From a virus (taxonomy: Duplodnaviria > Heunggongvirae > Uroviricota > Caudoviricetes): DNA of 12,292 nt. Every line of letters starts with the position of its first letter. Within the stretch, counting starts at the first letter, position 1. The stretch lies in the IMG/VR virus record IMGVR_UViG_3300029060_000166, one strand, 5' to 3'. Shown here piece by piece: positions 3,490-8,100 of the stretch. The notes below the pieces were generated by a model. The model was not told where the DNA came from. It was given only the letters and a program-made list of their open reading frames with translations, and searched no databases. A program made the position numbers and the translations under genes.

Positions 3490-4233
3490 ATGACACAGAC
3501 AGAATCAGCGATTCTGGCGCATGCCCGGCGGTGTGTGCCTGCGGAGTCGTGCGGCTTAGTGGTGAGAACGCCGGAGGGGGAGCGGTATATCCCTTGTGTG
3601 AATATCTCTGCAGAGCCGGAGGCGTATTTTCGTATTGCACCGGAAGACTGGCTGCGGGCAGAGATGCAGGGGGAGATTGTGGCACTGGTCCACAGTCATC
3701 CCGGTGGGCTGCCCTGGCTGAGCGAGGCTGACCGGCGGCTGCAGATAAAAAGCGCACTGCCCTGGTGGCTGGTCTGCCGGGGTGACATTCACAAATTCCG
3801 CTGCGTGCCGCACCTGACGGGACGGCGCTTTGAGCACGGGGTGACGGACTGTTACACCCTGTTCCGGGATGCATACCATCTGGCGGGGACTGAAATGCCG
3901 GATTTTCATCGCGAGGATGACTGGTGGCGCAACGGTCAGAACCTTTACCTGGACAATATGGCGGTCACCGGCTTTTACCGGGTGCCCCTGTCCTCTGCAC
4001 AGGCGGGCGATATTCTGCTGTGCTGCTTTGGTGCTTCGGTACCGAACCATGCCGCCATTTACTGCGGCAACGGTGAGCTGCTTCACCATCTGCCTGAACA
4101 ACTGAGTAAACGGGAGAGGTATTCCGAAAAATGGCAACGACGAACGCATTCTGTCTGGCGTCACCGCCACTGGCACGCATCTGCCTTCACGGGGATTTGC
4201 AACGATTTGGCCGCCGCCTCAGCCTGTATGTGA
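3490..4233 (+). CDS. K: Tail tip assembly protein K (247-aa ORF) with an N-terminal JAMM/MPN-type metalloprotease-like domain and a C-terminal NlpC/P60-like domain
   Basis: Starts MTQTESAILAHARR six nt after the L stop. A JAMM-type motif HSHPGGLPWLSEAD (H-x-H-x7-S-x2-D) is encoded at about 3691-3732, followed by a Cys-containing segment (GVTDCYTLFRDAYH) and downstream His, consistent with NlpC/P60. The 3' end overlaps I by 103 nt. The lambda reference annotation uses a shorter 199-aa K; the exact start is therefore uncertain, but the ORF is open from 3490. Confidence 0.88.
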   Translation: MTQTESAILAHARRCVPAESCGLVVRTPEGERYIPCVNISAEPEAYFRIAPEDWLRAEMQGEIVALVHSHPGGLPWLSEADRRLQIKSALPWWLVCRGDIHKFRCVPHLTGRRFEHGVTDCYTLFRDAYHLAGTEMPDFHREDDWWRNGQNLYLDNMAVTGFYRVPLSSAQAGDILLCCFGASVPNHAAIYCGNGELLHHLPEQLSKRERYSEKWQRRTHSVWRHRHWHASAFTGICNDLAAASACM

Positions 4234-4811
4234 ACACGGCAGCGGAAGCCATTCGCGCCCTGTCGATGCAGATGCCGGGCTTTCGCCGTCAGATGAACGA
4301 AGGCTGGTACCAGATACGTATTGCCGGTTATGACACGGCACCGGAGGCGGTGTACGCCCGTCTTCACGAACAGCTGGGTGAGGGAACGGTCATCCACATT
4401 GTGCCGCGACTGGCCGGGGCCGGAAAGGGTGGACTGCAGATTGTGCTGGGGGCGGCAGCCATCGTGGGCTCTTTCTTCACGGCCGGTGCCTCGATGGCGT
4501 TATGGGGTACAGCCCTGAGTGCCGGCGGTTTTTCTGCCACCACGATGCTGTTTTCACTGGGGGCCAGCATGATACTGGGCGGTGTGGCCCAGATGCTGGC
4601 CCCGAAGGCAAAAACACCGGATTACCGCGCAACGGATAACGGCAGACAGAACACGTACTTTTCCTCACTGGATAACATGATTGCCCAGGGGAACCCGATG
4701 CCGGTGCCTTACGGGGAAATGCTGGTTGGCTCCCGCCGTATATCCCAGGACATCAGCACCCGTGATGAAGGCGGGGGCGGAAAGGTCGTGGTTATCGGGC
4801 GGCAGGGGTAA
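4131..4811 (+). CDS. I: Tail tip assembly protein I (226 aa)
   Basis: Translation matches lambda gpI by recall (ARICLHGDLQRFGRR, VIHIVPRLAGAGKGG, NTYFSSLDNM, GEMLVGSR), including the Gly/Ala-rich hydrophobic C-terminal half. ATG at 4131 is preceded by GGGAGAGG; stop TAA at 4809-4811. Confidence 0.92.
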   Translation: MATTNAFCLASPPLARICLHGDLQRFGRRLSLYVNTAAEAIRALSMQMPGFRRQMNEGWYQIRIAGYDTAPEAVYARLHEQLGEGTVIHIVPRLAGAGKGGLQIVLGAAAIVGSFFTAGASMALWGTALSAGGFSATTMLFSLGASMILGGVAQMLAPKAKTPDYRATDNGRQNTYFSSLDNMIAQGNPMPVPYGEMLVGSRRISQDISTRDEGGGGKVVVIGRQG

Positions 4812-4856
4812 AAAGAATAAAAAAATCCCGCAGTGATCGCGGACAGGAACTGCGGG
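4811..4856 (-). terminator. Intrinsic (Rho-independent) terminator oriented for the minus strand
   Basis: GC-rich inverted repeat CCCGCAGT (4827-4834) / ACTGCGGG (4849-4856). On the minus strand it is followed directly by a U-tract (ATTTTTTTATTCTTTT, + strand 4811-4826). On the + strand the stem is preceded by A's and not followed by T's, so it is oriented for minus-strand transcripts. Confidence 0.6.
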
Positions 4857-4915
4857 AGAGTTACGAAGATTAAGTGTAAGGAATTATTCTTATATCACGA
4901 CAAAAAAATTAACGC
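4815..4915 (-). ncRNA. Candidate small noncoding RNA (~100 nt) bounded by a sigma70 promoter and an intrinsic terminator
   Basis: The predicted start is about 7 nt downstream of the minus-strand -10 box and the transcript ends at the 4811-4856 terminator. The span has no ATG and only 2-3 codon GTG/TTG frames, so it is ORF-less. It lies in an AT-rich insertion between I and J that is absent from the lambda reference layout. Confidence 0.35.
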
Positions 4916-4921
4916 AGAGAA

Positions 4922-4975
4922 ATTATACGCGCCACAGTCAGTTTGTGAAAATGTGAAGATATTCAGAATTTTTAT
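4922..4975 (-). promoter_or_regulatory. Near-consensus sigma70 promoter on the minus strand (-35 TTCACA, 16-nt spacer, -10 TATAAT) with an A/T-rich UP-like tract upstream
   Basis: Read on the minus strand: TTCACA (+ strand 4944-4949) matches TTGACA at 5 of 6; a 16-nt spacer; TATAAT (+ strand 4922-4927) matches 6 of 6. The upstream minus-strand sequence (+ strand 4950-4975) is A/T-rich (AAAAATTCTGAATATCTTCACATT). Confidence 0.5.
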
Positions 4976-5014
4976 GCCATTACCGGTTTTAACCAACAGG
5001 ATTATCGGTGGGCA

Positions 5015-5058
5015 TGAAAGAAAACCCCGGTATCTGCTGATACCGGGGTTTCTCTTTA
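5015..5058. terminator. Strong perfect hairpin with U-rich flanks on both strands; possible bidirectional terminator or insulator
   Basis: 12-bp perfect stem AACCCCGGTATC (5023-5034) / GATACCGGGGTT (5039-5050) with a 4-nt loop TGCT. It is followed by TTTCTCTTT on the + strand and by TTTTCTTTC on the - strand. Confidence 0.5.
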
Positions 5059-5154
5059 GCATGGCAGAAATGTGTTTCATGCTTTTCGGGCGAAGGATAT
5101 CCGACTTCTGTACGGAATGGCAAGTGGCGGTTAATTTATTCAGGGGAAGGCTGT

Positions 5155-8100
5155 ATGGGAAAAGGTGGCGGTAAGGCACACACGCCTCGTGAGGCGAAGG
5201 ATAATCTCAAATCCACGCAGATGATGAGTGTGATTGATGCGATTGGTGAGGGACCGATAGAAGGTCCGGTGAAGGGACTGCAGAGTATTCTGGTGAACAA
5301 AACCCCGCTGACGGACACGGACGGTAATCCCGTGATACACGGTGTGACTGCGGTCTGGCGTGCCGGGGAGCAGGAGCAGACACCACCGGAAGGCTTTGAG
5401 TCCTCCGGAGCTGAAACCGGACTGGGCGTGGAAGTGACGAAGGCAAAACCGGTGACGCGCACCATTACGTCCGCGAACATTGACCGCCTGCGGGTTACCT
5501 TCGGGGTGCAGTCACTGGTGCAGACCACGTCAAAGGGCGACCGTAATCCTTCCTCTGTCCGGATTCTGATTCAGTTACAGCGTAATGGCCGCTGGGTGAC
5601 GGAAAAGGATGTCACCATTAACGGCAAGACCACCTCGCAGTTCCTGGCCTCGGTGATTCTGGATAATCTGCCGCCCCGGCCCTTTAACATCCGGATGGTC
5701 AGGGAGACGGCGGACAGCACCACGGACCAGCTGCAGAATAAGACGCTGTGGTCGTCATACACCGAAATCATCGATGTGAAACAGTGCTACCCGAACACGG
5801 CCATTGTGGGGCTGCAGGTGGATGCGGAGCAGTTCGGCGGCCAGCAGATGACGGTGAACTACCATATCCGCGGTCGCATCATCCAGGTGCCGTCAAACTA
5901 TGACCCGGAAAAACGCACGTACAGTGGTATCTGGGACGGCAGCCTGAAACCGGCATACAGCAACAACCCGGCCTGGTGTCTGTGGGACATGCTGACTCAC
6001 CCGCGCTACGGCATGGGAAAACGTCTGGGGGCGGCGGATGTGGACAAGTGGGCGCTGTATGCCATCGGGCAGTACTGCGACCAGACGGTCCCGGATGGTT
6101 TCGGGGGGACCGAGCCGCGGATGACCTTTAATGCGTACCTGGCACAACAGCGTAAGGCGTGGGACGTTCTCAGTGATTTCTGCTCTGCGATGCGCTGTAT
6201 GCCGGTATGGAACGGCCAGACGCTGACGTTCGTTCAGGACCGTCCGTCGGATGTGGTGTGGCCGTACACCAACAGCGATGTGGTGGTGGATGATAACGGC
6301 GTGGGTTTCCGCTACAGCTCCAGTGCCCTGAAGGACCGGCACACGGCAGTGGAGGTGAATTACACCGACCCGCAGAACGGCTGGCAGACCTCCACGGAAC
6401 TGGTGGAAGACCCGGAAGCCATACTGCGCTACGGACGCAACCTGCTGAAGATGGACGCGTTCGGCTGTACCAGCCGCGGTCAGGCCCACCGTGCCGGGCT
6501 GTGGGTGATAAAGACCGAACTGCTGGAAACGCAGACGGTGGATTTCACGCTTGGGTCACAGGGGCTGCGTCACACACCCGGTGACATCATTGAAATCTGT
6601 GATAACGACTATGCCGGGACCATGACCGGCGGACGTGTCCTGTCCATCGATGCCGCCAGCCGTACCCTGACGCTGGACCGGGAGGTGACACTGCCGGAGA
6701 CCGGCACGGCCACTGTTAATCTGATTAACGGCAGCGGTAAGCCGGCGAGCGTGGCCATCACCGCACACCCCGCGCCTGACCGGATACAGGTCAGCACCCT
6801 GCCGGATGGTGTGGAGACATACGGTGTGTGGGGACTCTCCCTGCCGTCACTGCGTCGTCGCCTGTTCCGCTGTGTCTCCATCCGGGAAAACACGGACGGC
6901 ACGTTCGCCATCACGGCGGTGCAGCACGTACCGGAAAAAGAAGCCATTGTGGATAACGGGGCCAGCTTTGAGCCGCAGTCAGGCAGCCTGAACAGCGTTA
7001 TCCCACCGGCAGTGCAGCACCTGACGGTGGAGGTGAGTGCAGCTGACGGTCAGTATCTGGCACAGGCGAAATGGGACACGCCGCGGGTGGTGAAGGGTGT
7101 GCGCTTCAGTCTGCGTCTGACCAGCGGAAGCGGAGAAGACAGCCGTCTGGTGAGCACCGCCATCACCGCAGACACGGAGCACCGTTTCAGTGGTCTGCCG
7201 CTGGGGGAATACACCCTGACGGTGCGGGCCATTAACAGCTACGGCCAGCAGGGCGAACCTGCGACCACCACCTTCCGGATTAACGCGCCTGCAAAACCCG
7301 CCACCATTGAGCTGACGCCGGGGTATTTTCAGATAACGGCGGTACCGGTGCTGGCGGTGTATGACCCGACGGTGCAGTTTGAGTTCTGGTTTTCGGAAAA
7401 ACGCATCACGAACACGGCACAGGTGGAAAAATCTGCCCGTTATCTGGGGACCGGCAGTCAGTGGACTGTCCAGGGCGATCGGATTAAGCCGGGGATGGAT
7501 TTCTGGTTTTATGTGCGCAGTGTCAACCTGGTGGGCAAGTCTGCATTTGTGGAAGCCAGCGGGCAGGCCAGCAATGATGCAAAAGGGTATCTGGAATTTT
7601 TCCGTGGTCTGATAGATGAGACGCTGCTGGGGCAGGCACTGAAAGAGCGCATTGATGCTTCAGCGCTGCGTACGGAGGTCACGCAACTGGAAGAAGATAT
7701 CCGTCAGCGGATGGACACGGATATCGCAGAAGTGACCCGGAAAATCGGGAAGGCGGAAAACAGCCTCACGCAGCTGGTTGCGAAAAAGAATGAGGACCAG
7801 ACACTGGCCATCGCGCAGGTGAGCCAGAAAGTGGACCGGGTGAGCAGTGAAATCTCACAGACTGTCAGCCAGGGGCAGTCAGAAAACGCCCGACAGATAG
7901 CACAGGTCCGCCAGTACGTGGATAAAAAAGGGAGTGAAATTACCTCGACCACGGATAAAAAGCTGGGTGACCAGGCCGTGACCATACAGCAAATCCAGCG
8001 GGTTCAGTCAGACACGCGCAATGAGCTGAATGCCATGTATATGCTGAAGGTGCAGAAAACAAAAAACGGTATTCCCTATGTGGCCGGGATTGGCGCGGGG

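Follow-up and report, generated by a model that had tools for sequence, protein, structure and literature searches.

A predicted antisense small RNA gene of the pasB/EcOnc22 family between tail genes I and J of a lambdoid prophage

The window analysed here, a 12,292-nt stretch of DNA from IMG/VR virus record IMGVR_UViG_3300029060_000166, is the tail region of a lambdoid prophage, and over the 601 nt searched it is 100% identical to a prophage of E. coli SK1144 that adjoins potB. Its genes follow the order H, M, L, K, I, J, lom and a tail-fibre gene, and at the H/M, M/L, L/K and K/I junctions they overlap or lie 5 nt apart. Amid this tight packing, genes I and J are separated by 343 nt (4812-5154; I stop at 4811, J start at 5155). 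An earlier reading of the letters alone, referred to here as the original prediction, had singled out this spacing, the AT-richness of the gap and a distance of about 60 bp at the same junction in lambda, and all three observations hold: the GC content of the whole gap is 0.417 (0.354 for 4812-4975) as against 0.61 in gene I and 0.575 in gene J, and the lambda I-J spacing is exactly 60 nt (I end 15444, J start 15505). We conclude that positions 4819-4975 very probably constitute an allele of a prophage small RNA (sRNA) gene known as pasB in enteropathogenic E. coli (EPEC) and as EcOnc22/23/24 in enterohaemorrhagic E. coli (EHEC). The features of the locus are as follows.

4922..4949, minus strand: sigma-70 promoter, with -35 TTCACA (4949..4944), a 16-nt spacer and -10 TATAAT (4927..4922); 11/12 match
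4826..4857, minus strand: intrinsic terminator hairpin, arms UCCCGCAG...CUGCGGGA and a 16-nt loop, from scan and fold
4819..4915, minus strand: predicted pasB-family sRNA of 97 nt, its 5′ end placed by promoter geometry; from scan, fold and PasB alignment
4862..4885, minus strand: best-conserved segment of the RNA body, AAUUCCUUACACUUAAUCUUCGUA, from family alignments and per-segment identity
4948..4975, no strand assigned: most conserved block of the unit, reading ATAAAAATTCTGAATATCTTCACATTTT on the RNA strand; mean pairwise identity 0.91
4976..5154, no strand assigned: module B, an independently assorting spacer with a 13-bp hairpin and then ~106 nt to the J start
4230..4811, plus strand: tail assembly gene I (Pfam Lambda_tail_I; RefSeq annotation of the identical prophage)
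5155..8847, plus strand: gene J, tip attachment and host specificity (Pfam FNIII-A_GpJ and Phage-tail_3; RefSeq annotation)
2-2452: gene H (open reading frame (ORF) calls, RefSeq annotation of the identical prophage, Pfam)
8915-9514: lom, downstream of J and followed by the tail-fibre gene

The original prediction placed a near-consensus sigma-70 promoter on the minus strand, aimed at a GC-stem terminator with a U-tract about 100 nt away, and both elements are present as described. When the gap was resampled with a first-order Markov model, a promoter match of 11/12 quality appeared in 0.6% of cases (chance 0.006), and a U7 tail at 4819-4825 lies directly 3′ of the terminator hairpin, beginning 8 nt past the I stop. 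Since the predicted RNA runs from 4915 to 4819, the transcript ends near 4915 and 4815 that had been proposed were correct as coordinates. No ORF lies between the promoter and the terminator of the unit. The RNA is predicted to fold into a mostly open, AU-rich body followed by the terminator (-19.4 kcal/mol, z = -2.1), and the terminator and U7 tail of this predicted fold are the features expected for binding to the proximal face of Hfq. Just 5′ of the terminator, the segment at 4862-4885 consists of an anti-Shine-Dalgarno-like UCCUU and a UUAAUCUUC box; in the predicted fold the box is unpaired and the UCCUU is held in a short, weak helix. We regard this segment, from its sequence, as a candidate seed. 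In Zhu et al. 2026 (bioRxiv 10.64898/2026.05.13.724894) the proposed PasB seed likewise adjoins the terminator on its upstream side.

PasB is one of five 'pathogenicity-associated' sRNAs identified by ligation and sequencing of interacting RNAs (RIL-seq) in EPEC strain E2348/69 (Pearl Mizrahi et al. 2021, PMC8550237). The 83-nt RNA is encoded on the minus strand of prophage PP6 (NC_011601 1466343..1466261; PMC8550237 table S6), its size having been taken from RNA-seq coverage and corroborated by Northern blotting (PMC8550237) with the probe AATCCCGCAGTGATCGCGGAGCT (table S6). In an hfq deletion its level changes by log2 factors of -6.8 and -2.4; it is more abundant under the non-activating than under the activating condition, and it has 37 RIL-seq partners from the core and accessory genomes (PMC8550237). 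When we located the published interval in NC_011601, it was found 6 nt past the stop of tail gene I, ahead of gpJ and antisense to both, which is the arrangement seen in the window. The published probe matches the window at 20 of 23 positions (4824-4846), and the predicted window RNA is 72% identical to PasB, with a longest exact run of 25 nt. Pairwise alignment with E2348/69 showed near-identity in the terminator arms and the U/A run, as well as in the -10, the -35 and a further ~45 nt upstream of the latter (~94% identity for the promoter plus upstream block, counted from the alignment), with many substitutions and indels in the RNA body. The two units are thus alike in their I-J position, antisense orientation, promoter, upstream block, terminator arms, U7 tail and approximate length; they differ in the terminator loop, which is 5 nt longer in the window allele, and in module B, which has its long form in the window and a short form in E2348/69. 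The 2026 preprint searched bacterial genomes by megablast with a word size of 28; it reports no pasB variants other than ones with a few nucleotide differences, and no two pasB copies less than 28 kb apart (bioRxiv 10.64898/2026.05.13.724894). Because the window allele shares no exact 28-nt run with the 83-nt PasB query, a search of that kind should miss it.

A second line of evidence comes from EHEC O157:H7 Sakai, in which EcOnc22 (prophage Sp15), EcOnc23 (Sp14) and EcOnc24 (Sp11) were described as homologous peaks of Hfq cross-linking and analysis of cDNA (CRAC; Tree et al. 2014, PMC4104026 tables S2 and S3C). For EcOnc22 the Northern band is at ~85 nt, and deletion of hfq destabilises the RNA (PMC4104026 table S2). 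On NC_002695.2 the positions given for EcOnc22/23/24 are within the I-J gaps of these three prophages, and the strand is the one antisense to the tail genes. Coordinates alone leave this mapping ambiguous, as the published positions refer to NC_002695.1 (PMC4104026) and our comparison record is NC_002695.2. The published Northern probe, which begins GGGAGAGAACGATGAAGATTAAC, matches at 23 of 23 positions in each of the three Sakai I-J gaps, on the tail-gene strand, and the match directly adjoins the CTGCGGG terminator arm. This match identifies EcOnc22/23/24 and PasB, on sequence grounds, as alleles of one sRNA gene and hence as one gene family. The Sakai units share with the window unit the I-J gap, the strand, the terminator arms, the UUAAUCUUC box, the U-run and the upstream box, and their RNAs are ~85 nt long and Hfq-dependent; they carry another body allele and another terminator loop, with a weaker -35 (TTCCGG) and AATAAT as the -10. 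The PasB entry of table S6 does not make this link, as no EHEC homologue is given there (PMC8550237), and the terms 'EcOnc', 'promoter' and 'CRP' do not occur in the 2026 Pas preprint (bioRxiv 10.64898/2026.05.13.724894). As a practical observation, mapping the EcOnc sRNAs of Tree et al. 2014 onto the current RefSeq record requires an offset correction: a hit to AgvB by its Rfam model puts the shift from NC_002695.1 to NC_002695.2 at about +137 to +146 nt at 1.94 Mb, and a check with a PasA homologue allowed either 0 or ~+140.

To describe the family as a whole, I-J junctions were gathered in three ways, with a gpI query, a terminator pattern and a promoter-box pattern. Every one of the 199 units found by the terminator pattern is downstream of gene I, and for 193 the distance to the gene's end is no more than 40 nt. 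At least 63 distinct predicted RNA alleles were obtained, and the window allele falls within a continuum that includes PasB and EcOnc22. Mean pairwise identities over the 56 distinct alleles having their own promoter differ among segments.

Upstream block ATAAAAnTTCTGAAnnTCTTCACATTT: 0.91
-35/spacer: 0.67
-10 to start: 0.77
5′ part of the RNA: 0.65
Central part (AAYUCCUUA...UUAAUCUUC): 0.76
Linker: 0.46
Terminator loop, 17 versions, in a set selected on the stem: 0.58

In these alleles the -10 hexamer is kept as TATAAT, TATCAT or AATAAT. Some I-J gaps hold tandem head-to-tail arrays of two to four diverged units, and every unit has a -10, an upstream box and a terminator of its own; one example is IMGVR_UViG_2728369607_000007, positions 300-1240 of the locus (L161), and others are our loci L149, L154 and L224-L233. 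Sixty-seven complete E. coli genomes contain a four-unit array at ≥80% coverage; those among the matches listed are mostly Shiga toxin-producing strains. The family as a whole was found in 1847 of 5426 complete E. coli genomes (4729 places in all) and in 65 phage records, all of them Escherichia or Shiga toxin (Stx) phages. For 633 records the best match reaches 99% identity or more to the window allele, and lineages of extraintestinal pathogenic E. coli, including sequence types ST648 and ST1193, match the window at ≥99.8%. In every match listed by this RefSeq-based genome search the family is unannotated. An sRNA family that occurs in about a third of complete E. coli genomes and lacks an Rfam model is of relevance to genome annotation. 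In the two PasB papers we found neither the equivalence with EcOnc22 nor the ≥63 alleles, the tandem arrays or the box described below.

The block that is best conserved within the unit lies upstream of the transcribed region. It contains, at 4949-4970, a box resembling a binding site for CRP (AAATGTGA-N6-TCAGAATT; AAATGTGAagatatTCAGAATT), in which 14 of 16 arm positions fit the CRP consensus. This is the sole consensus match in the window, where 0.06 would be expected. The centre of the box is 32 nt upstream of the -10, or at about -44.5, as compared with -41.5 for a canonical class II site; the spacing between box and -10, counted by hand from the alignment, is 24 nt in three alleles. The box is retained even in alleles with a degenerate -35. 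We treat control by cyclic AMP (cAMP)-CRP as a lead suggested by this putative site, which could alternatively serve another host factor. The non-activating and activating conditions of the PasB study were reportedly LB and DMEM media, respectively, and this would fit cAMP-CRP control.

Several points weigh against assigning the window unit to this family as an active sRNA gene. Rfam gave no match to the window at the gathering score, nor to 4700-5250 at E values up to 10, where only sub-threshold noise was seen, and it holds no model for the PasB/EcOnc22 sRNA family. RNAalifold predicted no consensus pairs in 24 diverse alleles, because two terminator subfamilies were aligned out of register; the second of these has a different self-complementary stem, UCUCCCGU/ACGGGAGA. 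The invariance of the terminator arms in our first allele set is partly an artefact, as that set was searched with the arm pattern; in the separate promoter-box search, the CUGCGGGA 3′ arm was present in 215 of 232 copies. PasB as published begins 13-15 nt downstream of the start that its perfect TATAAT predicts, just past a U7 run, and the homologous window position is ~4902 as opposed to the promoter-predicted 4915. The true or mature 5′ end of the window RNA is therefore uncertain, and both 4915 and ~4902 are possible. The RIL-seq study found no target motif for PasB (PMC8550237). Lastly, expression of the window allele itself is inferred, as are its seed, targets and regulation. The 5′ offset of PasB reflects either 5′ processing of the RNA or a loss of coverage in the U-run.

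Nonetheless, the anatomy, position and distribution of the unit and its homology to two characterised loci place it in the pasB/EcOnc22 family. The kind of element is one already described and experimentally validated in two pathotypes, the window unit being a diverged PasB allele. Expression as a discrete RNA of ~83-85 nt and dependence on Hfq are known for the E2348/69 and Sakai alleles (PMC8550237, PMC4104026). The original prediction of an autonomous antisense unit made in lysogens gains support, by analogy, from these homologues at the same site, PasB and EcOnc22-24, which were seen on Northern blots (PMC8550237, PMC4104026). The following sequence of events would account for its function. 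In the lysogen, host RNA polymerase with sigma-70 would start on the minus strand at ~4915, and transcription would end at the hairpin and U7 run abutting the gene I stop codon, giving an RNA of ~85-97 nt. The U-tail and terminator would, by homology, bind Hfq, and the AU-rich body, most likely the AAUUCCUUA...UUAAUCUUC segment just 5′ of the terminator, would base-pair in trans with other RNAs. By this means the prophage could plug into the post-transcriptional regulation of its host.

Two alternatives accept the RNA and assign it another role. It might act mainly in cis, by pairing with the I-J spacer of the late tail mRNA or by promoter collision, and so tune J and the genes downstream in lytic growth or when late transcription is leaky; this would make sense of a unit that is always antisense within the tail operon and immediately past I, of complete complementarity between the RNA and the late mRNA's I-J spacer, of a single position kept despite a variable body, and of the plus-strand terminator-like hairpin that always lies between unit and J. 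We nevertheless consider a role in cis unlikely. The RNA overlaps neither the I coding sequence nor the J ribosome-binding site, which is ~230 nt away in the window, and lambda-type phages manage without the unit. Moreover, the EPEC homologue has its 37 Hfq-mediated chimera partners in lysogens, in which the late operon is silent (PMC8550237). Duplex scans pairing the RNA body with the translation-initiation regions of M, L, K, I, J, lom and stf gave results no better than shuffled controls, which also counts against an action in cis.

A sponge or anti-sRNA role, in which the RNA would titrate an sRNA of host or prophage in the manner of AgvB and AsxR, is likewise improbable. Like the family described here, AgvB and AsxR are short Hfq-binding prophage sRNAs in a fixed moron slot, with a conserved 3′ terminator and a variable 5′ part and with several copies per EHEC genome, and this anti-sRNA architecture of constant terminator end and variable targeting part is an argument for a sponge (PMC4104026). 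One RIL-seq partner of PasB is, in addition, an RNA adjoining pasA (PMC8550237). However, AgvB and AsxR are 51-60 nt long, as against ~85-97 nt, and occupy a slot downstream of PR′ instead of the I-J gap, and the conserved UCCUU of the family suits pairing to ribosome-binding sites. No sequence or Rfam likeness to AgvB or AsxR was seen. Identity of the window unit with either sRNA (RF02702, RF02703) was rejected, as the covariance models gave no hit up to E 10 and those genes lie downstream of PR′ (PMC4104026); as a positive control, the Rfam models do find AgvB in Sakai control loci.

That the gap encodes a small protein is very improbable. ORFs of 44-113 codons are present on both strands (candidates 4833-5174, plus; 4895-5179, minus; 4989-5123, minus), and protein morons are found at the same junction elsewhere (sodC and an Enterobacter lipoprotein-like ORF). 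Yet no gap ORF matches a Pfam family, none of the candidates lies between promoter and terminator, and the frames cross module boundaries that recombine freely and are broken where the prophage has a short module and by indels of 1-3 nt between alleles; we rejected the protein-coding reading for the lack of a Pfam match and the broken frames. The notion that the gap is a non-functional recombination scar or plain terminator spacer with chance motifs draws on the ease with which AT-rich spacers yield promoter-like matches (0.7 sites of ≥9/12 expected per 800 nt), but it has next to no likelihood given the rarity of 11/12 matches in the resamples, the conservation of promoter block, -10 and terminator around variable intervening sequence in at least 56 distinct alleles, and the published CRAC and RIL-seq data, which contradict it by showing the homologues to be abundant Hfq-bound RNAs that are also seen on Northern blots.

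The original prediction called the element a moron. The lambdoid moron concept goes back to Juhala et al. 2000 (as cited in PMC4104026), and morons such as lom, bor and sodC resemble the window unit in being extra, compositionally distinct segments within the late operon, with their own promoter and terminator, absent from close relatives and expressed in the lysogen, as the window allele may be by analogy; sodC even occurs at the same I-J junction in other prophages. Accordingly, the structural part of the claim stands: the unit has its own promoter and terminator, a deviant GC content (0.354 versus 0.58-0.61) and is absent from lambda and another relative. It lacks, however, a protein that would benefit the lysogen, its product being a non-coding, Hfq-binding sRNA, and it is only ~165 bp long. 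The unit works like a moron, but a non-coding one. The spacer is not universal either: lambda and an E. ruysiae prophage are without the unit, and therefore the case in which all close relatives share the same spacer, which would have spoken against an acquired element, does not apply.

The same junctions show that the proposed insertion of about 340 bp is not a single one. The extra DNA relative to lambda is real, but an alignment of 25 distinct I-J gaps revealed that the pasB unit combines freely with different promoter-to-J segments. Because the pasB unit and module B recombine independently, the 343-bp gap is made up of two modules and not one insert: the sRNA unit of ~165 bp, extending only over ~4812-4975, and module B at 4976-5154. 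The window carries the long form of module B, whose 13-bp hairpin (5012-5041) has A-rich and T-rich runs at its sides (z = -4.3 on the plus strand and -5.1 on the minus strand). Other prophages, as in E2348/69 and Sakai, carry unrelated short forms, with a different plus-strand hairpin followed by TTGTTTTT, the stems of which differ by compensating changes. In lambda and the one E. ruysiae prophage there is only a 60-nt gap, with a plus-strand hairpin and T-run and no pasB. The module B hairpin looks like a bidirectional terminator, to judge from its predicted structure, and its probable role is to stop transcription, or to insulate, between the sRNA promoter and J. Elements resembling a terminator appear, in general, to stand just upstream of J, and may insulate this gene from transcription that is not Q-modified.

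Beyond what is published on these sRNAs, the present analysis unites PasB with EcOnc22-24 and adds a modular, hypervariable architecture, tandem arrays and the conserved upstream box. These observations raise a broader possibility, which we put forward tentatively and hold to be somewhat doubtful, that the I-J spacer is a dedicated slot for sRNA cassettes in which a constant frame surrounds a fast-diverging targeting segment shuffled by recombination. The frame may consist of the upstream box (possibly a site for cAMP-CRP or another host factor), the -10 hexamer and the terminator. The ≥63 predicted alleles, the arrays of up to four tandem units, the alternative neighbouring modules and the presence of sodC or an insertion sequence (IS) at the junction support such a slot. 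If it exists, phages would carry a library of Hfq-dependent sRNAs that obey one common environmental signal and far exceed, in number and diversity, the one 'PasB' known to date. The unification of the family and its modularity would in any case guide work on the rewiring of host regulation by prophages.

Other occupants of the junction were also seen. In some prophages the pasB promoter and module B give way to a minus-strand sodC that has a terminator of its own (for example in E. coli strain 107, L003 1613-2463; also L014, L103 and others). The breakpoint coincides with the predicted pasB transcription start, and directly downstream of sodC the body and terminator of pasB are still in place. 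The pasB RNA of such prophages might be a product of the sodC 3′ untranslated region, or might be silent. In Enterobacter wuhouensis (L011 3037-3700) and in L012, whose gpI is ~41% identical, the I-J gap contains a plus-strand lipoprotein-like ORF and not an sRNA. The occurrence of this ORF in distant prophages makes the I-J junction appear to be a general insertion site for morons.

A few minor observations concern the same junction. Facing the module B hairpin and U-tract (~5048-5003) is a weak minus-strand promoter, TTGCCA-18-TATCCT (9/12, 5123..5094). A second minus-strand RNA of ~85 nt in module B was considered and found to be unsupported, as no published RNA maps there, and the sequence of module B is nearly invariant and so offers no evolutionary signal for a second unit. 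In one contig (L136 4791-6004) an IS separates the pasB promoter region from the module B hairpin; it was called IS3-type from its overlapping two-ORF layout alone. Finally, gpI sequences 91-98% identical to that of the window turned up in short contigs labelled Streptomyces flavalbus, Parendozoicomonas haliclonae and a Clostridiales metagenome-assembled genome, and these contigs, which carry the E. coli I-J region, are most likely assembly contamination.

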